Positions 3,990 through 61,296 of a DNA stretch of 64,000 nucleotides are shown here, piece by piece; position 1 is the stretch's first letter, and each line of letters begins with the position of its first letter. Below the pieces are notes generated by a model. It was not told the origin of the DNA. It did no database searches and saw only the letters and a list, made by a program, of their open reading frames with translations. The stretch spans positions 3,846,001-3,910,000 of the forward strand of contig CM075990.1 in assembly GCA_038087875.1 (NCBI GenBank). Direction: 5' to 3'. Made by a program: the position numbers and the translations under genes. This stretch comes from Malacoraja senta (taxonomy: Eukaryota).

Positions 3990-5250
3990 ATTTTCGTGAG
4001 CTGCCATCTGGTACTACATTAAGTTTCCCTGGCAGATAGATAGCTCCAATCCAAATCTCTCTATCCCTACTCCAGGTCCAATTGTATTTGCCAACCTGTC
4101 ACATGATAACAATTTGATTCCACCCATGTGATTCATATCAGCAACTGCTGCAGTGTTGTCTATTTTGCACTGCACATGCAAACTAGTTTAGTTAGTGCCA
4201 TAAGCCTTGAGTCCATAAAATAGTCTTGGTTAATTCCCCATGTTTGCAGAAGCAATGTTCATCTGTCTCCACCGCTGGATCTTGTATCAGTAGCACCCTA
4301 CCCAAGTGCTCTGACATCTGTCTGCAAATCATGGAAGCTTGGTCCAATAACACTTTGGAACTACTAGTGGACACATGCTGAATCCACCATTGTACATCAG
4401 CAACAGCCTCTATTGATAGAAGCATAGGTCTATTATAATGACCCCAATGTATCCTCAATGCTTGTTCCTTTGACCTTTGTAATTGTAGATAATAAAGTGG
4501 CCATATTGAACTGCTGGAAATGCTGCCAGCCATTACCACAGCAGTCTTGTCACCTAGCTAATTGAAGGCTGTGTGTTAGCAATTAACTTGATATAGCTCT
4601 TAATTAGCTCTACCCTTTTTTGCCTGGGCAAGGTCACAATGATGTTGATTAAGTCCATTGTGAACCCAACTAGTCAATTTGTGTCACAGGTATAAATTTA
4701 GATTCCTCAGAATAGTTTATAAAGCCCAATTAAAAAATGGTTTTTACCAACTGCCACTGATGCTTCAGCTGTTTCCTTTGATTGTCCTACAATCAAGATA
4801 TTATCTAGAAAAGCCATGAGCACATGGCCTTGACTTCTCATCATGCCTAGAATAGGTTTTAACAACTTTGTAATCCCTCTAGGAGCTGAAGACAAACCAT
4901 TAGGCAGTGGATTGTATTGGCATAATTCCCCATCCAGCTGAATTTTAAATCTTCTATCCTGGAAATGAACAGACACTGAATCCGCATCTTTAAGATCTCC
5001 TTCACAAACGTTTCCATCTTAAAATGTCTATACCGTACAAAAGGGTTAAGCCTATTCAGGTCTGTATAATTCTGCATCCCCCCATCCTTTTTTGGTCTGG
5101 GAAAGATATTGGACACAAACTGATGGCTTTGGTAAACTGCCTTAGCAATTACACCTTTATTACATCAGCTTGCAAGTTCCAGCTGAACTTCCAATTGTTT
5201 AGTGATACTGAAGTCAAACTCCTTTTTTGGAACATGTTGCATGGGTAAAT
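3990..5250 (-). pseudogene. DIRS reverse transcriptase and RNase H, frameshifted
   Basis: SNIFPRPKKDGG..DLNRLNPFVRYRHFKMET; LPNGLSSAPRGITKLLKP...AFLDNILI (YLDD motif decayed); KIDNTAAVA and IYLPGKLNVVPD RNase H motifs. Confidence 0.88.
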
Positions 5251-5414
5251 CAGAATTTGCATTTAAGCTTTATTTGATGCCCTTGAATAACCTTCAGTAT
5301 AAACATATCTGAGGTAAACATTTAATTGTATCACATTAGATCTGTCTACATGAGAACCAGACCCTCTTACCTCCTTACCACCTGGCATTCTTCCCCGGCC
5401 TCGAGCTGGATATC

Positions 5415-6836
5415 TCACCTCCGTGGCGGTGCTATAGCCGAACGCCAACTGCGCTGCATCGTAGCTGGACTCGTCCCTTGCCCGGACCAGTCTGCTCCCT
5501 TATAGGGATACTTCCGCTTTGGTGAATACGTGGCTGCCGTCTTAGCCTCCTCCTCCAGCTCCTTCACCTGCTGTGCGAAATCCTCGCCAAACAGCTGTGC
5601 CAGTTGCACTGTGCCAGGCTGGCAGAGTGAAGCATATTTAGCATTGATGGTTGGTCTAATCGCATCTTGCGGAGGCAATTGATCTCAAAGTGGGCACTCC
5701 ACAATAGCGCCTTTTGTTGTAATTTGTCATGACCTCTCCATCCACCATCCTGGCAAAGCTCGTTATACCAGATGCCAGCAACTTTAAAAATATGCTGGAG
5801 CTTCACATGCTCCTGGGCTTTCATTAGTATGCCCATCTTACCCCAATTCTTCCTGTTCCCAACAGGAACTTTTAACAGTCCACAGTTGATTGGGGCTTCA
5901 TACTTCGTTACTGTCTCATCCATTGTCAGCTCCTGTAGCTGATGTGAGACTTGGTAATTTATGCTGGTGGCAAGTTCCTCACCCAGAGGCTCACCAGCAT
6001 CCGACGACATGGCAAACCGTGCTGCACACGGTGTCAGCTCTGACAGCTGCCTGCCCTCCCTTTGGAAGTCGTCGGACTCGGGGTCAGAGCATATCTGCCC
6101 TTCTGCACTCACCTCTTGCAAAGAGGGTGCTTTCAAGCAGGCCTCTACTAGGCACTGCCAGCGGAGCCGTCCCCACGGCCTCCCGCCTGCACAACTCCTC
6201 CTGGAGTATGGTTTTATGAAGCAGACCTCTCCTAGGCACTGCCAGCGGAGCCTTCCCTAAGGCTTCCCGCCTGCACTACTCCTCCTGGAGTTGTGGCTTT
6301 ATGAGGCAGACCTCTCCTAGGCACTGCCAGCAGAGCCTTCCCTATGGCTTCCCACCTGCACTACTCCTCCTGGAGCGTCTCTGTGGAGCAGCCCCTGTAT
6401 GAGCTGCTCCTTTTGGATAACCGCTGGGGAACGGTATCCTGTCCCCGACGGGACTCTCGTGGCCCGACTCTGCGGAGTCTATAGCCCTGACAGACTTAAC
6501 TTATGCCGACCGCCCGACTGGCGTTGGCTGTGTACCCGGCTGGGCACTTTGCCAAGTCTGTCGCTGCACCGCTACCAGCTTGCGACTCCCCCGAGGTGAC
6601 AGGCTGCCTTTCAGAGACTGCGTCCCGCAGCTCTCGCTCTCCTTGTCGGCAGCAGCCTGCACCTTTTCCTTGTTCCTGTATGTGCGGGAAAAAACACACA
6701 AAACAATTTCTTTACTTTTTTCTAACTCCTCCAAAGTCTCCCCGACTTTGGTGGAGCTGTATTTACTCACGTTGCAGCAGGAGCTCCGAGCTCCGGCTGC
6801 CGTTGTCGCCAATGCGTCAGACGTAATGACGCGCAT
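5415..6836 (-). pseudogene. DIRS gag-like ORF1, frameshifted
   Basis: Overlapping ORF pieces 6501-6836, 5564-6136, 5415-5678 (LFGEDFAQQVKEL resembles DIRS gag C-terminal region) upstream of RT. Confidence 0.65.
6142..6375. repeat. ~2.8 tandem copies of an 84-85 bp unit inside DIRS gag
   Basis: cctctMctaggcactgccagc... recurs at 6142, 6226 and 6311. Confidence 0.9.
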
Positions 6837-9489: not shown

Positions 9490-11200
9490 TATTATAATAA
9501 TAATAAACTTTATTTCAGACTCAAGGTCCAGACAAGGGGCAACATTACATAAAAATACATTGCATATAAAAAGACCATAAAATACATACAAAATCTTAGT
9601 GTGTCACTTATAAAAGCATCATAAATTATATATTTAAAAAAAACACAATACATGATTTGAAATCCAGAATGCCCTACAACGAGACAGCGATACCAGTGTC
9701 TCTACAACTGGGATTCATAGCGTGTCGTGCTAAACCTTATGTTTGACAAGGCCACGATAATTACATTTTTAGAGTCATTTATCCTGCAAACGAATTTGTA
9801 CATATGATTTCTTAGGATAGCTTCTAAAGTACTGACTCCTGCAGCCACAAACATGTTACCTGCACTACACCATCTAGGTTTCCTCGGCAGGGTTCTCATG
9901 GCATCATTATAGGCCACTTTTAGTCTCTGCACACTTGGCCTTCCGTAGTTCGATCACAGGTACGCAGTGTAGAGTGGTGCAATATGCTCTAAACAGCGAC
10001 ATCTTCATCACATCTGTACATGCACCAAACTTACGCAAGAGAATATTCGCCTGTACATATAGCATACTTTGTTGCCTATAACTATCCTCATCATCTGTCA
10101 TTTGTTCTGTCATAAAATGCCCAAAATATTTTACCTTATTGCAGACACTAAGATTATTGTCAGACAATTTAAAATCAGGACATTTTAGGCATTTATCCTC
10201 TTTGGTTCTACAGATCATAACAGCACTCTTACAAGCATTATATTTAATATCATGTTCCACACCATACACAGAACATATAGTAAGGAGCTGCTGTAGACCA
10301 GCGCTAGATGGACTAAATGTATCATAATATGGTTCACTAAAATATTACCAATCATGCACCCAGTATTACAGGCTTTCAATTGCTTGGACAGATCATCAAT
10401 ATAAAGATTAAAAAGGACTGGGGACAAAATCCCCCCTTGTCTAACACCATTGCTAACCCCAAATGGGGCTGAGACCCTATTGCCCCATTTTATTTGCATA
10501 GTCTGGTGGGCATACCAGTAAGCCAGAATTCTCACAATGTATTTAGGCACCGCTCTTTGACTCATTTTAACAAACAGCTTCCTATGATTAACACGATCAA
10601 AGGCTTTGGAAACATCAATAAAGCAGCGTTTGAAGAGTTTTTGCCTCTATATTTGTTTACAATCTCCTTTAGGGCACATATGCACAAGTCAGTGCCATGT
10701 TTAGCTTTAAAACCCAACTGGTTATCTGTGCAGTTAACAAACTCATTTACTCTATCCAGCAGAACTCTTTCTAGGACTTTTGACAATATGCTGGCTAAAG
10801 CTATGGGCCTGTAATTATTTAGGCTGCCTATTTTACCAGCTTTCTCCTTAATGACCGGCACTAGCAGAACAGACAACATTGAGTCTGGTAACAAGCCATG
10901 AATCATAAAGCCAGTAAAACAAATAGCAAGGAGAGGAGCTATCCTGATACTCGCATACTTAAGATGTTCAGCAGAAATATGATCCAAGCCACTTGCTTTG
11001 TTGTTGGACAGCTTGTTCATGGCATGATATACCTCATGTGACATAATCACCATTGAGTCATTACTCTCAATATTGTCCACCATTTACAAATCACCTTGTA
11101 CACAGTTGAATAAAGTATTATAATGTAGTCGCCATAACTCCGCGATATTAGCTGTTCTGGAGATTCCATCTAACAGTGCATGGTAGAGAAGTTTTGTGAC
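9490..11200 (-). mobile_element. RTE-X-like non-LTR retrotransposon, 5'-truncated, decayed
   Basis: RT pieces NYRPIALASILSKVLE, NQLGFKAKHGTDLC, GVRQGGILSPVLFNLYIDDL; YADD region appears deleted near 10320; 3' end gtctgaaataaag plus (ATT)n tail; clade call tentative. Confidence 0.75.
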
Positions 11201-14273: not shown

Positions 14274-14490
14274 CAAGCACCAACAAAGTTACAAAAAGTA
14301 CTCACCTATTACCAACCTTTGTCCTGCCTGTCCTTTCTCCCAGCTTTCCCTCCCACCTCCTCCCCCCACAATCAGTCTGAAGAAGGGTCCTGACCTGAAA
14401 CGTCACCTGTCCATGTTCTCCAGAGATGCTGCCTGACCCGCTGAGTTACTCCAGCACTCTGTGTGTCCTCTCAGCCAATAGAAGCTTGGG

Positions 14491-16046
14491 AGGGCTGCCA
14501 ACATTGGGTAAGAGTTGGTAGTGAGAAATTGCGAGAGACCAAGCCCGAGGGAGCGTAGCGCCCCCCTCCAATTGGTACGGAGCTTTTGCATTTTTCAGCT
14601 TGAAATTGTGCAATCTGGTGCATACTGTAGCGAGTCTTTTAACTTACACTTGAATGCCATATTTATGCTTTAAATTGGATTAGCTATGAATAAGGCTAAT
14701 TTACATTCCTAATAACATTCCACAGTAGAGCCAGGCTCTGATCAACAGGTGCAGCACATGAATGATCTTAGTGTATTCATGTATGGAAATCAGATTATAA
14801 TCAAGCACTTGGCCCATGTTGACCATCCTGGGTCTCACTGCACACCTGGTACTACTCCTGACCCCGACTCCAGTTGTATACCTTCTCTCATTCCTGACCC
14901 TGAGTCCAGCCTTACATCTAGCCCCCTACATCATAGCTGCTTACCTGCTTAGGTTCCCAGTGCTGCATACAGGTTTGGATGGATATGGACCAAAAGCAGG
15001 TAGTGTAGCTAGGACATGTTGGTGGGTATGGGTAGGTTGGGCCGAAGGGCCTGTTTTCACACTGTATCACTCTATGACTACATTATACCTCCACCATGCA
15101 TGAATGCTTCTAAATCAAGTGGTCGAGTTTTATTGCCATATACTCAAGCAGAGAAACATAGCAAATTGGTGCAGGAATAGGCCATTCGGCCCTTCGAGCC
15201 AGCACTGCCATTCAATATGATCATGGCTGTTCATCTAAAATCAGTACCTCTTTCCTGTTTTTTCCCCATATCCCTTGATGTCGTTAGCCCCAAGAGCTAA
15301 ATGTAACTCTTTTGAAAACATCCAGTGAATTGGCCTCCACTGCGCACTGCCTTCTGTGGCAGAGATTTCCACAGATTCACAACTCTCTGGGTGAAGAAAT
15401 GTTATCCTCATCTCAGTCCTAACTGGCCTACCCCTTATTCTTAAGCTGTGTGACCCCTGGTTCTGAACTCCCCCGACATCAGGAACATTTTTCCTGCAGT
15501 TACAGTAAGTGAAAATCTAGCAGGCAAGCAGGATGCTTTCTCCATTTGACGGCCACTATCTTCCACCGTTTCTACCCAGTGCTTGGAACTTACTTCCAGC
15601 AGGCACTGGTTGTCCTCCAGGATGCACCGAGCCGCAGCCTGGTCCATGCCGGTCAACAGGGCAAATTCAGCACAGAGAGTCTCACGACAGCGGCGCAACG
15701 CTTCCAACGCCTCTGACGGCCCGGGATTCTTGCACTGAGGCTGCTCCATGGCCGGAGCTGCAGCGAGCGACTTGCCAGCCCGGCAAACACTTGCCAGCCC
15801 AGCAAACACTCACCAGCCCGGCAAACACTCGCCAGCCCCAGCTCGCCGTCCGCATCTGACCCGGCCGCTGCTTCTGCTTCCATCCCTCCCTCCGCCGCAG
15901 CTCTCCAACACCCGTGGCCCATGCAGTTAATATTAGTTTTGAAATTCTCGTTGAGCGTGACAGAGTGTGAGAAATTCTGTGATCAGTGTGAGAATTGGGC
16001 GAAATGCGTGATTCTCATGCTCAATGCGTGAGAGTTGGCAGCTCTG
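14491..16046. mobile_element. hAT-type non-autonomous DNA transposon carrying a captured gene fragment
   Basis: Termini agggctgccaac (14491) and gttggcagctctg (to 16046); flanking 8-mers agcttggg (14483-14490) and agtttggg (16047-16054), 7/8 identical. Confidence 0.7.
15594..15883 (-). pseudogene. TDP2: TDP2 exon-1-like fragment (N-terminal UBA-like domain) with splice donor; frameshifted by a 19-bp repeat expansion
   Basis: RRCRETLCAEFALLTGMDQAAARCILEDNQCLLE resembles TDP2 KKRRLLCVEFASVASCDAAVAQCFLAENDWEME (human, from memory); followed directly by GAA|GTAAGT; no downstream TDP2 exons recognised. Confidence 0.65.
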
Positions 16047-16989
16047 AGTTTGGGCACATGTTTAATTGGAGAGAATTTGGCATATGATTGTGGGCCTTGG
16101 TACAGTTTTGCATTGCAATATTTATCAATATTTCACCACTCTGAAATCGATACAAGGCAAACAAAAATGCACCACTATACCAATGCGGCACAGTGGCGCA
16201 GGGGTAGAGTTGCTGCCTTACAGCGCCAGAGACCTGGGTTCAACCCTGCCAATAGACAATAGGTGCAGGAGTAGGCCATTTGGCCCTTCGAGCCAGCACG
16301 GCTATTCAATGTGATCATGGCTGATCATCCCCAATCAGTACCCCGTTCCTGCCTTCTCCCCATATCCCCTGACTCCGCTATTTTTAAGAGCCTTATCTAG
16401 CTCTCTCTTGAAAGCATCCAGAGAACCAGCCTCCACCGCCCTCTGAGGCAGAGAATTCCACAGACTTGGGTATTTTTAAAGTGGGGACAGTACACAGAAA
16501 GTCATTGGGTATTTTTAAAGTGGAGATTGATAGGTCCTTGATTAGTGGGTGTCAAAGGTTACAGGGAGAAGGCAGGAGATTGGGGTTGAGAGGAGAAAAT
16601 ACATCAGCCATGATCGAATGGCAGAACTGACTTGAATAGGCTGAATGGCCTAATTCAATTCCCATGTCTTACGATCTAATAGAATATGCCTTGTACTAAG
16701 CAAGGCAACATAAATATACCACATAACTCTCATACTTCCATACCACAACCTGGGTCACTGCCAGCTCTTAAAGCAATCTCATTCTGCCTCTTACTTCCTG
16801 GACTGGTTTTCCTAGAATAGCTGATCATTTATTTATTTATTGTGTATTTATTTGTTGTGTTGTTGCGAGGAAAGCTGCAGCAGGTAAGAATGTTATTGTT
16901 CTGGTCTGGTCCGGGCCACCATGGGCGATCTATCTTTTCCTCTCAACCCCATTCTCCTGGCTTCATCCCATAATCTTTTGACACTCTTA

Positions 16990-19656: not shown

Positions 19657-20324
19657 CGTGTGTGGATGTGGCGCCGAAGGACGAGAAGCTGAAGTAAAGA
19701 AGTCGAAGCCAAATAGCTGAATGGAAACTAAGCTGAAACGTCAACAAACTGAAAGCATACGAAGCCAAAATGCCACCTAACCGAAAGGCTGCGTCGCCTA
19801 CAAGCCAACTAACAGAATGCCGCTCTGCTGAAAAGTCAAATAATGGCTTGTGTGAGAAAATGACCCCCACCCTCCAGTTTCCACCGGTCAGTCATGTGAT
19901 GGACGCGGGGGGGTCTGGAACAATCACTGACAAGTCCCGACCCCCGGCGAAGTCATGTCCGTTATTTGACTTTTCGGCAGAACGGCATTCGGTGAGTTGG
20001 CTTTTAGGCATCCCGCCCTTTCGGTGAGTTGGCTTTTAGGCGTCCCGCCCTTTCGGTGAGTTGGCTTTTAGGCGTCCCGCCCTTTCGGTGAGTTGGCTTT
20101 TAGGCGTCCCGCCCTTTCGGTGAGTTGGCTTTTAGGCGTGCCACCCTTTCGGTGAGTTGGCTTTTAGGCGTGCCGCCCTTTCGGTTAGTTGGCTTTTAGG
20201 CATCCCGCCCTTTCGGTTAGTTGGATTTTAGGCGTCCCGCCCTTTTGGTTATTTGGCATTTCGGCTACGTTTCCATTCGGCTATTTGGCTTCGACTTCTC
20301 ATCCTTCGACGCCACGTCTGGGTA
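19657..20324. mobile_element. Fold-back (Mutator-like) non-autonomous DNA transposon
   Basis: Long inverted arms (gtggcgccgaaggacgagaag...tcgaagccaaatagctgaatggaaac vs gtttccattcggctatttggcttcgacttctcatccttcgacgccac); flanking direct repeats cctccaggac / cctccagaac. Confidence 0.7.
19988..20243. repeat. Minisatellite, 8 x 32 bp
   Basis: Unit ttcggtgagttggcttttaggcgtcccgccct starting at 19988, 20020, ... 20212; no spacers. Confidence 0.95.
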
Positions 20325-40727: not shown

Positions 40728-41107
40728 CAGGTCCACCCCCAATTTTACAGCACCCTTGGTTCCAGAGCCTTGCTGGATTATCCGTTTTGCCGGACCAACA
40801 GAGGTCACGGCCTCCGAGAGGAATCTAACGGTACTGGAACGATCAGCCGAGGGGTACGAGATACCGGCCCGCAAAGTCGCCATCGGAAGTCGGCTATGGA
40901 AACGGATCTGCCAGCTCCGGCCGGACCAGAGTTCCAGAGCCCCAGCCACAGGGGGCTAATTCGACTCGCCGATCGGCCGCGGAAGTCCCGATGAGGTCGC
41001 GATCGGCCGCCTCACCCGGCCTACGGGGGATTTCAAGTCTCTTGTAATTTTGTCCGGAGTAAAGGAAGGGCCACACCACCAGTTCCCATCATTCGGAGGT
41101 GGAGCTG
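40728..41107. mobile_element. Tc1/mariner-like MITE, same family as 23311-23651, inserted in a V-SINE
   Basis: ta|caggtccacccccaattttacagcac...ggaggtggagctg; internal sequence is the reverse complement of 23311-23651. Confidence 0.75.
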
Positions 41108-41126
41108 CACCTTAATCGGTTACTGC

Positions 41127-43770
41127 AAACGCTGGTGGGTGTTGTGTACAGGCCACCTAGCAGTAGTAGTGAAGTTGGGGATGGCATCAAACAGGAAATT
41201 AGAAATGCGTGCAACAAAGGCAAAACAGTTATAATGGGTGACTTTAATCTACATATAGATTGGGTGAATCAAATTGGCAGGGGTGCTGAGGAAGAGGATT
41301 TCTTGGAATGTATGCGGGATAGTTATCTAAACCAACATGTAGAGGAACCAACGAGAGAGCAGGCTATTCTAGACTGGGTATTGAGTAATGAGGAAGGGTT
41401 AGTTAGCAGTCTTGTTGTGCGTGCCCCCTTGGGCAAGAGTGACCATAATATGGTTGAGTTCTTCATTAGGATGGAGAGTGACATTGTTAATTCAGAAACA
41501 ACGGTTCTGAACTTAAAGAGAGGTAACTTTGAGGGTATGAGACGTGAATTGGCCAAGATTGACTGGCAATTAGTTCTAAAAGGGTTGACGGTGGATATGC
41601 AATGGAAGGCATTTAAAGACTGCATGGATGAACTACAAAAATTGTTCATCCCAGTTTGGCAAAAGAATAAATCAGGGAAGGTAGTGCATCCGTGGATAAC
41701 AAGGGAAATCAGGGATAGTATCAAAGCAAAAGATGATGCGTACAAATTAGCCAGAAAAAGCAGCATACCAGACGACTGGGGGAAATTCAGAGACCAGCAG
41801 AGGAGGACAAAGGGCTTAATTAGGAAAGGGAAAATAGATTATGAAAGGAAACTGGCAGGGAACATAAAAACTGACTGCAAAAGTTTTTATAGATATGTGA
41901 AGAGAAAGAGATTAGTTAAAACAAATGTAGGTCCCTTGCAGTCAGAAACAGGGGAACAAGGATATGGCGGACCAATTGAATAACTACTTTGGTTCCGTCT
42001 TCACTAAGGAAGACATAAATAATCTGCCGGAAATAGCAGGGGACCGGGGGTCAAATGAGATGGAGGAACTGAGTGAAATCCAGGTTAGCCAGGAAGTGGT
42101 GTTAGGTAAATGAGATGGAGGAACTGAGTGAAATCCAGGTTAGCCAGGAAGTGGTGTTAGGTAAATTGAATGGATTAAAGGCCGATAAATCACCAGGGCC
42201 AGATAGGCTGCATCCCAGAGTACTTAAGGAAGTATCCCCAGAAATAGTGGATGCATTAGTGATAATTTTTCAAAACTCTTTAGATTCTGGAGTAGTTCCA
42301 GAGGATTGGAGGGTAGCAAACATAACCCCACTTTTTAAGAAGGGAGGGAGAGAGAAAACGGGGAATTACAGACCAGTTAGTCTAACATCGGTAGTGGGGG
42401 AACTGCTAGAGTCAGTTATTAAAGATGGGATAGCAGCACATTTGGAAAGTGGTGAAATCATTGGACAAAGTCAGCATGGATTTACGAAAGGTAAATCATG
42501 TCTGACGAATCTTATAGAATTTTTCGAGGATGTAACTAGTAGAGTGGATAGGGGAGAACCAGTGGATGTGTTGTATCTGGACTTTCAGAAGGCTTTCGAC
42601 AAGGTACCACATAAGAGATTAGTATACAAACGTAAAGCACATGGTATTGGGGGTTCAGTATTGATGTGGATAGAGAACTGGCTGGCAAACAGGAAGCAAA
42701 GAGTAGGAGTAAACGGGTCCTTTTCACAATGGCAGGCAGTGACTAGTGGGGTACCGCAAGGCTCAGTGCTGGGACCCCAGCTATTTACAATTTATATTAA
42801 TGAACTGGATGAGGGAATTGAAGGCAACATCTCCAAGTTTGCGGATGACACTAAGCTGGGGGGCAGTGTTAGCTGTGAGGAGGATGCTAGGAGACTGCAA
42901 GGTGACTTGGATAGGCTGGGTGAGTGGGCAAATGTTTGGCAGATGCAGTATAATGTGGATAAATGTGAGGTTATCCACTTTGGTGGCAAAAACAGGAAAG
43001 CAGACTATTATCTAAATGGTGGCCGATTAGGAAAAGGGGAGATGCAGCGAGACCTGGGTGTCATGGTACACCAGTCATTGAAAGTAGGCATGCAGGTGCA
43101 GCAGGCAGTGAAGAAAGCGAATGGTATGTTAGCTTTCATAGCAAAAGGATTTGAGTATAGGAGCAGGGAGGTTCTACTGCAGTTGTACAGGGTCTTGGTG
43201 AGACCACACCTGGAGTATTGCGTACAGTTTTGGTCTCCAAATCTGAGGAAGGACATTATAGCCATAGAGGGAGTGCAGAGAAGGTTCACCAGACTGATTC
43301 CTGGGATGTCAGGACTTTCATATGAAGAAAGACTGGATAGACTTGGCTTATACTCGCTAGAATTTAGGAGATTGAGAGGGGATCTTATAGAAACGTACAA
43401 AATTCTTATGGGGTTGGACAGGCTAGATGCAGGAAGATTGTTCCCGATGTTGGGGAAGTCCAGGACAAGGGGTCACAGCTTAAGGATAAGGGGGAAATCC
43501 TTTAAGACCGAGATGAGGAAAAACTTTTTCACACAGAGAGTGGTGAATCTCTGGAACTCTCTGCCACAGAGGGTAGTTGAGGCCAGTTCATTGGCTATAT
43601 TTAAGAGGGAGTTAGATGTGGTCCTTGTGGCTAAAGGGATCAGGGGGTATGGAGAGAAGGCAGGTACGGGATACTGAGTTGGATGATCAGCCATGATCAT
43701 ATTGAATGGCAGTACAGGCTCGAAGGGCCGAATGGCCTACTCCTGCACCTATTTTCTATGTATCTATGTA
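41127..43770 (+). mobile_element. CR1 LINE, 5'-truncated in the endonuclease domain, young
   Basis: ORF 41099-41983 (VYRPP, MGDFN, SDHN) and ORF 42115-43677 (520 aa RT, FADD); frame broken by a 14-bp deletion near 41950 and a 55-bp duplication at 42056-42165; ttctatgtatctatgta tail. Confidence 0.95.
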
Positions 43771-46025: not shown

Positions 46026-46287
46026 ACAAAAGAGGACCCGATGGACAGGTTTTTCATGAAGGATGATGGAATGAGCTACCAGAAGAGCTGGTAAAGGAGG
46101 GTACAATTACACCAGTACATGGAGTCAAGAGTCAAGTTATTGTCATATATCCCAGATAGAACAATAAAATCCATGCGTGCAGATTGGAAAGTTTTATTGG
46201 GATGTGGGCCAATGCATTTCATTGTACATACCACAATAATGTATCATTAAGTTGAATCAGTTAGGCAACATGGTCAGCTGGGATGAG

Positions 46288-47578
46288 GTGAGATGAGGTG
46301 AGATGTGGTGGGTGCACAGGTGAGATGTGGTGGGGTGGGGTATGGGTACAGGTGAGATGTGCTGGGCTGGGGTGGGTGTACAGGTGAGATGTGGTAGGGT
46401 GGGGTATGTGTACAGGTGAGATGTGGTGGGGTGGGGTATGTGTACAGGTGAGATGTGGTGGGGTGGGGTATGTGTACAGGTGAGATGTGGTTGGGTGGGG
46501 TATGTGTACAGGTGAGATGTGGTGGGTGGGGTATGTGTACAGGTGAGATGTGCTGTGCTGGGCTGGGGTGGATGTACAGGTGAGATGTGCTGGGCTGGGG
46601 TGGGTGTACAGGTGAGATGTGGTGGGGTGGGGTATGTGTACAGGTGAGATGTGCTGGGCTGGGGTGGGTGTACAAGTGAGATGTGGTGGGGTGGGGTACA
46701 TGTACAGGTGAGATGTGCTGGGGTGGGGTGGGTGTACAGGTGAGATGTGGTGGGCTGGGGTGGGTGTACAGGTGAGATGTGCTGTGCTGTGCTGGGCTGG
46801 GGTGGGTGTACAGGTGAGATGTGGTGGGGTGGGGTATGTGTACAGGTGAGATGTGCTGGGCTGGGCTGGGGTGGGTGTACAGGTGAGATGTGGTGGGGTG
46901 GGGTACGTGTACAGGTGAGATGTGCTATGCTGGGCTGGGGTGGGTGTACAGGTGAGATGTGGTGGGGTGGGGTACGTGTACAGGTGAGATGTGCTATGCT
47001 GGGCTGGGGTGGGTGTACAGGTGAGATGTGGTGGGGTGGGGTATGTGTACAGGTGAGATGTGCTATGCTGGGCTGGGGTGGGGTGTACAGGTGAGATGTG
47101 GTGGGGTGGGGTATGTGTACAGGTGAGGTGCTATGCTGGGCTGGGGTGGGTGTACAGGTGAGATGTGGTGGGGTGGGGTATGTGTACAGGTGAGATGTGC
47201 TGTGCTGGGCTGGGGTGGGTGTACAGGTGAGATGTGGTGGGGTGGGGTATGTGTACAGGTGAGGTGCTATGCTGGGCTGGGGTGGGTGTACAGGTGAGAT
47301 GTGGTGGGGTGGGGTATGTGTACAGGTGAGGTGCTATGCTGGGCTGGGGTGGGTGTACAGGTGAGATGTGGTGGGGTGGGGTATGTGTACAGGTGAGATG
47401 TGCTGTGCTGGGCTGGGGTGGGTGTACAGGTGAGATGTGGTGGGGTGGGGTATGTGTACAGGTGAGATGTGCTGTGCTGTGCTGGGCTGGGGTGGGTGTA
47501 CAGGTGAGATGTGGTGGGGTGGGGTGGGTGTACAGGTGAGATGTGCTGTGCTGGGCTGGGGTGGGTGTACAGGTGAGT
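46288..47578. repeat. G-rich minisatellite, ~32-42 bp variant units, ~1.3 kb
   Basis: Core gtacaggtgagatgtg alternating with gtggggtggggtatgt or ctgggctggggtgggt. Confidence 0.95.
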
Positions 47579-57858: not shown

Positions 57859-60800
57859 TGATTATTTTAATTAATTGATTTTTTTTAGTGGATATAAAAT
57901 TAATTCCACATACAATTAATTCATCATACCACACCAGCATTATTTCTGATCATTTTCCGTTGACATTTCTATTAAAATTTGAGGGAATGCCAGGTAAAAA
58001 ATCTTATTGGAGATTTAATACACAAATTTTAAACGACACAAGGTTATAAATATTTAAAACAACAAATGAAACTTTTTTTCGCCTTATTTCGCCTTCTTTA
58101 TTATGGGAAACTTTCAAGGCATTTATTAGAGGAGTTATAATCTCATCAAATTTTCAAAATAAAAAGAATGACAGAACTGATGCTAGAACAAGAAATTAGA
58201 CAATTAGAGTTAGATAATGCCAAAGATCCTACTACAGATAAACATAATAAGATAATACTACTGAAATTTAAACTTAATCGAATTTTATCGGCAAGAGTAA
58301 TAAGATTATTCCAAATTACAAAACAGGAAAATTTCTAATTTGAGGACAAACCACATAAGCTCTTAGCTCGTCAATTGAAAAAACAAGAAAAGGAAAATAC
58401 TATCACTAAAATTAAATCAGAGAAAGGTGAATTACTAATATTACCTAAGGATATTAACAATAGATTTGCTCAATTTTATCAAAATTTATATACATCTAAA
58501 ACTAAAATAGAAGATAGTAAAATTATATATTTTTTAGATAACTAATCTTCCAAAACTTGATCTTTCGGAACAAGAGGAGTTCAGATTACACTTGAAGAAA
58601 TAGGTGAAACAATAAAATCGTTGAAAAATGGTAAGACGCCTGGACCAGATGGTTTTAGTAATGAATTTTATAAAAGATTTCATGAGATAACGACTCCATA
58701 CTTATTTAATTTATATACTCACGCTTTTAAAGAAAATAAACTACCAGAAACATTAGCAGAATCAAGTATTACGCTTATTCCAAAAAAAGATAAAGATTTA
58801 GATGAACCGGGCTCGTATAGAGCTATATCACTAGATCAGAAAATGTTAGCAAAGACTTTAGCAAGAAGATTGAGTAAATATATCAGTAAATTGATAAATC
58901 CTGATCAAACGGGGTTTATACCCAAAAGACACTCATTTAATAATTTGAGACGCCTGTTTAATATAATGTACTCACATAAAACGGAGGAAGAAGATATATC
59001 AATTGTTTCTCTGGATGCAGAGAAAGCATTTGATCAGGTAGAGTGGCAGTATTTATATAAAGTACTGCAAAAATTTAATATGGGAGAGAATTTTATTGCA
59101 TGGGTAAAATTATTATATGTTAAACCGATGGCAAGAATATTAACCAATAATATGTTATCTCCAAAATTTCAATTATCAAGGGGCAATAGGCAGGGATGTG
59201 CATTATCACCCCTGCTATTTGCCCTTATGATAGAGCCCCTGGCTGAAAGTATAAGAATTCATCCGAATATTCAGGGATATAATACTAGGGACTCAAATAA
59301 TAAAATTTCATTATATGCAGACGATATACTTTTATATATTACAAATTCACAAACGAGCATACCAAATTTATTAAATTTAATAGAGGAATTCGGGTCATTT
59401 TCTGGATATAGAATAAACTGGAATAAAAGTGAAATCATGATGTTAAAACCTCAAGAATCTACACACTTATTGAAATTCCCCTTTAAGATTGCAACAGAAA
59501 AATTTAAATATCTGGGTATTCAAATTACTAGAAAATATAAAGCATTATTTAATGCTAATTTTATGCCTTTATTAAATAAACTCAACACGTTGATTACATT
59601 CTGGAAAACACTTCCCTTATCATTAATAGGTAGAATAAACGCTATAAAAATGATCTTTCTACCACAATTATTATACCTATTTCAATCTATACCATTATAT
59701 ATACCAAAACATTTTTTTTTTAAACTAGACTCTAATATTACTAATTTTATTTGGGACTATAGATCACACAGAATTCAAAAAAACACTTATGTAAACCAAA
59801 AGATGTCGGGGGACTTTCACTTCCGAACTTGTTGTATTACTATTGGGCAGTGCATATTAAGAATATAATTTACTGGTTGGACAGTTCTACCCAACAGACA
59901 GAATGGATAAGAATGGAGAAAGAGGATTGTTCTCCTTGTAACATAGGAGCGATCCTCTTCTCCCTGATAAAACTGAACAACACAATATATAAGAATAACC
60001 CAATTATACATGATACAATAAGAATTTGGAAACAAATAAAATTATCTCTAAAATTAAGAAATCTATCATTGTTAATGCCAATAGTGAATAATCCTTCATT
60101 TAAACCATCTCTTATTGATAAAACATATAACCAATGGGAATTAAAAGGATCAGTGATATGTATGAAATGGGAAACCTGTTATCATTCCAACAATTACAAT
60201 TAAAATTTAAACTGAATAAAAGCCAATATTTTAAATATCTTCAGATTTGCGACTTCATGAAGAAATACATACAAAGATATCAAAACATAACTTTTGATCC
60301 ACTGGAAGAAGCAATGAATATTAAGGCTGACTCACAGAAATTAATATCATATTTATATAATAGTATTTTAAATATAGACCTACCATCGACAGAGGCACTT
60401 AGAGAAGAGTGGGAACGAGAATTAATGATAAAAATCACAAAGGAAACATGGGAAAAGTATTTGATATATATACACAAATGTTCGATTAATGTAAGACATA
60501 ATTTAATTCAATTTAAAATTTTACATAGATTATATTATTCAAAAACTAGATTGAATAAATTCTATCCAAATATATCCCCCATTTGTGATAAATGTCTATC
60601 CCAAAACGCAACTATAACACACTCTTTCGTTTCCTGCTTAAAACTTTATAAATTTTGGAGTGATATTTTTGAAATATTTACAAAATTATTCAAGATAAAA
60701 ATGGAACCTAATACTGAAATGATTATATTTGGAGTAATGGAAGACGGGAATAAACTGAACTCATCTCAACATTTATTTTTTAATTATGGTTTAATAATGG

Positions 60801-61296
60801 CAAAAAAACTAATACTTAAATTTTGGGAAAATACACCCATACCAACGCTTAAAATGTGGATTTCAAGCATGTTGGACACCGCACACCTTGAGGAAATGCG
60901 ATTCCTCCTAATAGATAAATCGGACCAATTCTTAACGAGTTGGTCTCCATTTGTCGGCTTTTTGGAATCATACGGTGCAACACAATTGTAGAAGCTAACT
61001 GTTCCAGGACTGGGTGGGGGATGGTCAAGATTATAAATAATGATCTCCATTTTTTTTTTAAACTTTCGACTCTGTTTCTTTCTATCTTCTTTTCTTCACT
61101 TTTTTTCTTTCACCCATTTTTCTTTTTCACACACTATATATCACACGTTTTTCTATCTTTTATTATCTATCTCTTTTTCTTCATTATAAGAAAAAAAATA
61201 AGAAGCTGTACATAAAATGTATTATGTCAATATATATTAGGCACTTTGGTGCCATATGATTGTACTTCTAATAAAATTAAAATATTTTTTTAAAAA
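57859..61296 (+). mobile_element. L1-clade LINE, 5'-truncated in endonuclease, frameshifted ORF2, in a GHITM intron
   Basis: ISDHFP, KTPGPDGF, QGCALSP, LYADDILL, CDKC..THSFVSC cysteine-rich C-terminus; stop at 60991; T-rich 3' UTR, AATAAA 61270-61275; ctagtccat repeated at 57850-57858 and 61300-61308. Confidence 0.93.

Follow-up and report, generated by a model that had tools for sequence, protein, structure and literature searches.

How did the first exon of the DNA-repair gene tdp2 come to lie between two inverted repeats, on a different contig from the gene itself, in the genome of the skate Malacoraja senta? The exon sits in a 64,000-nucleotide stretch, hereafter the window (contig CM075990.1, positions 3,846,001 to 3,910,000 of the forward strand; our contig C14), and an initial annotation had proposed that a hAT-type transposon bounded by 8-bp duplications captured it there and could supply it to other genes as a mobile first exon. 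[quoted passage not shown] As to how it arose, we consider it very likely that this copy, now deleted in part, belongs to a two-layer, non-coding cut-and-paste transposon, in which an inner element holds the tdp2 5′ end and an outer element serves as the carrier, the exon likely being an inert passenger. The structure is well supported and the scale and two-layer history of the family are new, whereas a function of its exon copies is unproven.

The captured sequence can be recognised over most of the window copy. On the minus strand, positions 14969-15913 are collinear with intron 1, exon 1 and the 5′ region of the parental genes (~80-84%), and the captured segment has a GC content of 0.65 as opposed to 0.45 window-wide. 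This GC-rich segment, an ATG at 15883-15881, the peptide and a GTAAGT at 15593-15588 all lie where they had been reported, and the TDP2 assignment holds as well, since the peptide (RRCRETLCAEF...NQCLLE) is 76% identical to the TDP2 proteins of Leucoraja (E 6e-15) and Rhinoraja (E 1.5e-14). Its match to the human TDP2 UBA chain 6q00_B is weak (E 0.016, residues 3-31 of 45), and that to Pfam UBA_4 (positions 1-26 of 43) falls below the cut-off; TAL-repeat and NIP_1 matches of the peptide, as well as protein P0011, were set aside as chance or compositional. A functional TDP2 UBA is described in the available part of PMC5137425 as a complete helical bundle in which an aromatic residue is conserved where helix 3 ends. 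The captured exon does not encode a complete UBA, the next conserved stretch being located in exon 2 of the parent, and some of the helices are presumably missing.

What does not hold is the proposal of one open reading frame (ORF) from the ATG at 15883 to the donor, because a 19-nt unit is tandemly repeated 3.6 times at 15770-15838 (two extra units, adding 38 nt) and thereby puts this ATG out of frame with the UBA-like peptide; the frame that it opens shifts and then runs into stops. The upstream ATG (15881-15883, minus strand) aligns with an in-frame upstream ATG of one parent gene. Only the second ATG, at 15749, is in frame in the window, opening 52 codons up to the donor (15594-15749, minus strand) that cover just the N-terminal part of the UBA-like domain, lack 24 nt present in the parent genes and have the W of NQW replaced by C. 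The captured donor (15588-15593, minus strand) reads GTAAGT where the parent genes have GTAGGT. It is followed by captured intron 1 (14969-15593, minus strand; 80-84% to both genomic tdp2 copies), in which older high-copy repeat remnants also seen in the parent intron are embedded, and at the other end sequence comparison assigns 15884-15913 (minus strand) to the remaining captured tdp2 5′ region.

The window is not the authentic TDP2 locus: it contains no downstream TDP2 exon, and tdp2 catalytic exons were found only in two tandem tdp2 copies on contig C19 (11 candidates gave 9 matches), both of which have an exon 1 and an exon 2 of their own. That intron 1 was retained, with 15500-15593 being 78% identical to the start of intron 1 in both genomic copies, bears out the earlier view that capture took place at the DNA level and did not yield a processed pseudogene. 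No element arms occur beside either parental exon 1 in the 120 kb fetched, the outer-family copy nearest to the parent genes lying 24-28 kb upstream in opposite orientation. At some residues the element agrees with Leucoraja and Rhinoraja TDP2 and not with the host tdp2 genes, for which horizontal transfer from another skate or, equally well, an older capture followed by change in the host genes may account. Regarding the parents themselves, the tandem duplication occupies C19 4.60-4.71 Mb (L031-L039, L060-L071); the exon 1 coding parts of the two copies are 98% identical and four later exon regions 88-97%, such that the exon 1 similarity may reflect gene conversion, and one copy, without the upstream ATG, resembles the 'TDP2-like' protein P0007 of Amblyraja radiata.

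Viewed in the window alone, the inverted termini (14491-14502 and 16034-16045, 11 of 12 bases complementary, as originally noted) do not rise above chance, being 1 of 18 inverted pairs in 2 kb with a motif that matches 4 times against 2.4 expected. We nevertheless judge them real because the 23-nt outer left end has 1,013 exact occurrences in the genome, the control having 0. Positions 15500-16060 form a dispersed repeat (2,746 candidates, 40 scored) with a sharp common right end at 16046, and typical outer copies measure 3.3 kb and carry 13-bp TIRs (family left TIR CAGGGCTGCCAAC). When all fetched outer elements with both ends were pooled (68, of which 67 distinct), exact target-site duplications (TSDs) flanked 51 of the 67 (5, 24, 19, 2 and 1 elements for lengths of 5, 6, 7, 8 and 9 bp, respectively), so that lengths of 6-7 bp make up 43 of the 51; shuffled flank pairs yielded 0.16 exact duplications per set. 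Eleven of the 16 elements with no exact TSD still show a 6- or 7-bp duplication with one mismatch. The many dispersed copies and their distinct TSDs thus confirm repeated mobilisation, whereas the 8-bp duplication that had been assumed is not what this family usually leaves behind (19 exact 7-bp against 2 exact 8-bp cases).

For the window copy this has a direct consequence. Its left TIR (14490-14502) has G as first base, but because the family TIR is 13 bp long and begins with C, position 14490 falls inside the TIR, and the duplication most likely consists of the 7-bp sequences AGCTTGG (14483-14489) and AGTTTGG (16047-16053), which differ by one mismatch, as judged from the sequence and the TSD lengths of the family. 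The non-coding outer left arm (14490-14965) corresponds to bases 2-515 of the 3.3-kb copy in L048 at 83% identity. Comparison with full-length copies places at 14966-14968 the junction of an internal deletion of ~1,730 bp, which took the remaining outer left arm, the left arm and TIR of the inner element and the distal captured intron. The outer right arm, with GTGAGA-type subterminal repeats, spans 15924-16046 (TIR 16034-16046).

Is the exon an integral part of this outer element? In an exon-blind sample (the first 60 of 100 listed outer left ends, all on contig C1), the exon lay within 5.8 kb of 21 of the 60, and among the TSD-bounded outer elements 17 of 37 carried it and 20 did not. Conversely, 40 of the 72 loci with an exact 36-nt exon match were sampled for nesting, and 26 of these had outer arms (L174 being placed with this group on account of its outer arm), while 14 were solo copies without them. 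Outer elements can therefore lack the exon, and the exon has boundaries of its own, which is literally what the initial annotation had named as refuting its proposal; these two facts do not refute the capture but move it to an inner element. The part of the initial proposal that stands is thus the capture of TDP2 exon 1, and the part that falls is the identification of the visible termini with the capturing element, as they belong to the outer carrier.

The inner element is itself a discrete transposon. A full 3.3-kb copy shows an internal terminus-like motif, and insertion-free solo copies are ~1.9 kb long with their own termini, CAGGGGCCGCGGA and TTCCGCGGCCCATG. They consist of a 700-bp left arm and a 77-bp right arm, between which lie ~1,160 bp of tdp2 that start upstream of the ATG, include exon 1 and reach into intron 1; in L188, for example, the tdp2 part comprises bases 705-1866 of 1,943. 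The 11 solo copies with both ends readable are flanked by a 5-bp duplication, exact in 6, with one mismatch in 4 and two mismatches in 1 (in L172, L209 and L191 it was read after a one-base shift of the left boundary), and so the inner element has transposed by itself. A search with the inner-end pattern gave 3 matches, as most copies differ at that end. All 30 inner right arms fetched, of 55 exact matches, join tdp2 at the identical base, which indicates one capture event. In L184, moreover, the outer left arm is followed by the inner element, flanked on both sides by TGAAC, and then by what lies beyond the inner element in long nested copies; the uninterrupted TGAAC target is present at 8 places, in another repeat and not in complete empty outer elements. 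The inner element therefore inserted into sequence carried by the outer element. This uninterrupted target (L213-L220) lies in another GC-rich repeat, with a fold-back arrangement in L213. What the window retains of the inner right TIR is its last 10 bp (15914-15923, GTGGCCCATG, where the family has GCGGCCCATG), the other inner right-arm sequence being deleted in the subfamily of the window copy, which is a later one that has lost most of this arm.

A six-frame reading of the outer left-arm consensus gave short broken frames only, upon which we abandoned the idea that this arm contains more captured exons or the relic of a transposase; fragments of it were labelled by eye as what we presume to be LINE-like (long interspersed nuclear element) sequence. 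Among the ORFs listed for full copies, whose interiors were read without a Pfam scan, no frame of transposase length was seen except an inserted LINE-like one. Exon-less outer elements include a subfamily with a different interior (L109, L091, L104, L125, L133, L115, L092), in which other inserts rich in GC and as many as three internal right ends occur; it looks as if grown by adding segments, and the inserts may be further captured gene 5′ ends. Four copies (L105, L126, L128, L131) are composites in which a CT-rich simple repeat sets apart a second partial copy of the exon-side segment together with a second right end, and at least four close copies, two of them ~3 kb apart, form a tandem array at 65-95 kb of contig C2755 (L002-L004, L017).

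A CpG-free 24-mer of the exon has 463 exact occurrences (control 0), 2 of which are, by their sequence, the parent genes, leaving at least 461 element copies; given that 12/25 and 13/28 sampled copies keep this 24-mer exactly, ~960-1,000 exon copies are estimated. The 39 copies compared differ from their consensus by 4.9%, or by 3.8% once CpG sites are left out, and this consensus in turn differs by 11.3% and 13.6% from the parent genes. Fourteen public runs under seven organism labels contained 0.32-0.39 of the words, DNA run X4 gave 1,809 contigs on 216 bp of the exon, and a protein of A. radiata has the element-type deletion; the family is thus likely common to skates.

Our model for these observations begins with the capture of the tdp2 fragment by the inner element, which occurred once and at the DNA level, presumably through gap repair or template switching. 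Such a step fits the FoSTeST model of PMC8277862, as far as the accessible text sets it out, because neither parent has element arms beside exon 1. The inner element moved alone, leaving 5-bp duplications, and one copy inserted into outer-carried sequence, duplicating TGAAC. Subsequently, the outer element, with its 13-bp TIRs and mostly 6-7-bp TSDs, spread the composite, and deletion derivatives such as the window copy arose. Mobilisation was presumably provided in trans by transposases, most likely hAT relatives of the hAT5/hAT6 kind, and the exon copies decayed neutrally with a presumably silent captured donor.

Several points weigh against this account or limit its precision. An exon-less progenitor of the inner element was not seen among the fetched right arms, the capture step being one that we infer. 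Neither element's ends were found around a transposase in 30 short and 20 10-kb hAT-domain loci (partly overlapping sets, from a search confined to hAT in which 150 of 1,648 candidates were scored). The window copy could conceivably have lost the C of its TIR and be flanked by an 8-bp duplication after all. Copy counts could be inflated by uncollapsed haplotypes, and the samples are biased to window-like variants and contig C1. The 11-14% gap between consensus and parents, compared with ~5% between copies and consensus, amounts to a lag that cannot be dated. Solo copies are slightly more divergent from the consensus than nested ones (non-CpG, 3.9% against 3.2-3.4%, without statistical test), which fits the order solo-then-nested only weakly, the gap being small. 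Finally, a raw ratio of nonsynonymous to synonymous polymorphism (pN/pS) of 0.45-0.51 in the 39 copies, with the short ORF open in 28 of them, could conceivably reflect weak constraint on a few copies.

A question that touches classification only is whether the two elements are hAT transposons at all. Their short CAGGG-type TIRs resemble hAT ends, the genome has many hAT domains, and membership of both in hAT seems probable to us; an affinity with hAT5/hAT6 is suggested by TSD length and by terminal likeness. In the form first proposed, however, the hAT label fails together with its 8-bp duplication, as 2 of the 51 exact outer TSDs are 8 bp and the inner ones are 5 bp, and no transposase with matching ends was found. 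The TSD lengths instead lie within the range of hAT5, hAT6 and hAT7 (inner 5 bp; outer mainly 6-7 bp, but mixed). According to the available portion of PMC12730594, hAT lineages with 5-, 6- and 7-bp TSDs do exist, and hAT5 and hAT6 belong to an animal lineage with Blackjack; these groups have short TIRs as do the skate elements, but they are defined by transposase, of which none with matching ends was found in the hAT-domain loci examined, and the TSD length of the outer skate element is mixed and not fixed. In PMC4455052, again as far as its accessible text goes, assignment to a family calls for terminal 11 bases that match a classified Repbase family with equal TSD length. That both elements belong to another TIR superfamily, for instance P/Galileo-like with 7 bp or IS3EU with 6 bp, is a possibility to be taken seriously, though we favour hAT. 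It would account for outer TSDs that vary from 5 to 9 bp in place of the usual fixed 8 bp, and for the missing hAT partner, but it is countered by the short-TSD hAT lineages just mentioned and by the ends of IS3EU (TAYGG..CCRTA, with TIRs >30 bp; PMC12730594, same portion). Near hAT dimerisation-domain matches, two TIR pairs with 8-bp and 7-bp duplication were noticed (L261:3270-5888 and L258:6543-8919), the termini of which are unlike those of the inner and outer elements.

Could the dispersed exons do something for the host? In its broadest form the idea would be that the relay of a 5-bp-TSD element within a 6-7-bp-TSD element seeded ~1,000 portable promoter-ATG-exon-donor cassettes, some of which became host alternative first exons (with a granzyme K-like candidate) or a source of small RNA against tdp2. 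We regard this as rather unlikely; if true, cut-and-paste elements would have shuffled exons at scale in a vertebrate, in the manner of plants. Its narrower form, a working first-exon cassette, with transcripts of some copies being spliced at the captured donor into host genes to provide new N-termini or 5′ untranslated regions (UTRs), appears more doubtful still. It can draw on the 25 of 39 copies that keep ATG, open frame and GT, as well as on Tan et al. (PMC8277862), in whose accessible text at least 30% of profiled Pack-TIRs are transcribed as chimeras. However, GT is kept in 34 of 39 copies, no more than ~3.8% divergence predicts, and the upstream ATG is in frame in 7. When the mutation spectrum of the element's own non-coding part was used as neutral control, the nonsynonymous/synonymous ratio of the 39 copies became 0.89-0.95, single copies not being resolvable at this level; the raw ratio was thus rejected as a sign of constraint, being a transition/CpG artefact. 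The exon copies evolve neutrally, with no constraint detectable. Among the joints and loose ends listed for contigs of the runs guessed to be RNA (X15-X18, one of which is probably DNA) and of DNA run X4, none was at the donor, a result that counts neither way, as contigs cannot show absence of splicing.

The best candidate for such a fusion is RefSeq model XP_032892111.1 (P0006), a granzyme K-like protein of A. radiata, which begins with an element-type TDP2 exon, this part ending at the captured donor position. Two granzyme-like genes of M. senta indeed have sense-oriented element copies 7 and 16 kb upstream of their second exon, and truncated copies matching the model are found on C1 at ~347.966 Mb (L240) and 348.123 Mb (L242), upstream of the two paralogs; from this the insertion would seem to predate the granzyme gene duplication and to be common to A. 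radiata. Yet the element-type part ends in a shifted frame, the next segment of the model matches a high-copy repeat, a candidate signal-peptide exon 1.3 kb upstream of exon 2 is skipped, and the start ATG is absent from both M. senta genome counterparts. The model is therefore likely a gene-prediction artefact. No other fusion was present among the 5, 3 and 4 matches of three protein profile searches, the first two of which scored ~8,000 candidates each, and no host-gene domain or exon was recognised in any of the 152 window ORFs (48 + 104), a scan that short exons could escape. The suggestion that the element supplies first exons thus stays unproven, with copies that look neutral and a sole chimeric model that looks spurious.

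Very improbable, in our opinion, is the simplest history, in which an outer hAT element with 8-bp duplications alone captured tdp2 exon 1 in one step. In its favour, outer TIRs with TSDs are the sole boundaries of the window copy and of the commonest 3.3-kb copies, and most sampled exon loci (26/40) have outer arms; it leaves unexplained the 14 loci without them but with their own termini and 5-bp duplications, the insertion into outer cargo recorded by L184 and the eight empty targets, and the near absence of 8-bp duplications. It is hardly credible that the copies arose as segmental duplications or as processed pseudogenes of tdp2 whose termini are due to chance, since flanks shared in L005/L006, L083/L084 and L123/L124 and the one contig with a tandem array are outweighed by a retained intron, absent exons 2 onward, sharp common ends and TSDs that are distinct and exact in 51 of the 67 elements.

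How does the two-layer family compare with known gene-capturing transposons? By every feature tested it is a multicopy Pack-TIR, with enclosing TIRs, distinct TSDs (in the inner element, 10 of 11 with 0-1 mismatch), a non-element parent, no transposase seen and a retained intron. MULEs have long TIRs and 9-11-bp TSDs, which distinguishes plant Pack-MULEs from the skate elements with their animal host, 13-bp TIRs (outer) and 5-7-bp TSDs, and Helitrons are rolling-circle elements without TIRs or TSDs. What the skate family has in common with plant Pack-MULE and Pack-TYPE elements, as the available parts of PMC8903248 and PMC8277862 present them, is DNA-level capture of GC-rich gene fragments and repeated transposition. 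The accessible text of Tan et al. 2021 (PMC8277862) reports 4 multicopy Pack-TIR cases (1.4%) in 100 animal genomes, with 0 cases in its one shark row, elephant shark. It describes multicopy animal Pack-TIRs as rare and small and concludes that most arose without transposition; its example Pack-hAT-N8_XT, with the CAPSL 5′ UTR, exists in three copies, and the median insert is 224 bp. Pack-hAT-N8_XT and Ssk-FB4 resemble the skate family in being non-autonomous TIR elements with a host fragment of GC-rich 5′ sequence, distinct TSDs and a distant, element-free parent. The skate family differs in its ~1,000 copies, in an insert of 1.16 kb that includes the ATG, a coding exon and its donor, and in the relay between two elements that differ in TSD length. 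The pipeline of that study was aimed at young cases and may have overlooked older families of high copy number. In scale the closest parallel is offered by the bat Helitrons (Helibat; Thomas et al. 2014, PMC4224331, in its accessible part), vertebrate DNA transposons that likewise amplified captured gene 5′ ends to high copy, with promoters, first exons and first introns at 4,690-5,505 per region class. Some of those fragments are under purifying selection and transcribed, whereas the skate copies look neutral. The literature searched holds no report of TDP2 capture by a transposon in Chondrichthyes or of nested TIR capture in skates, Repbase, Dfam and most subscription journals being outside this search and possibly cataloguing the family without the capture.

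Cut-and-paste elements can, then, spread gene pieces in a vertebrate at the scale reported for bat Helitrons, and an estimated thousand copies is unusual for animal elements of this kind, even if the copies, the damaged one in the window included, are likely inert passengers often nested in a second element and, as things stand, look neutral, so that any functional impact would be hypothetical. The family lends itself to measuring the frequency with which a dispersed first exon gets co-opted. On the practical side, the copies will confuse read mapping to tdp2 and gene prediction in skates, one RefSeq model already seeming affected.

Elsewhere in the window, LINE-type endonuclease and reverse-transcriptase frames occupy 41063-43677 and 58561-60991 on the plus strand and 10215-11083 on the minus strand, and tandem arrays lie at 46286-47577 (periods 32/69), 19988-20265 (period 32) and 6135-6375 (period 85).

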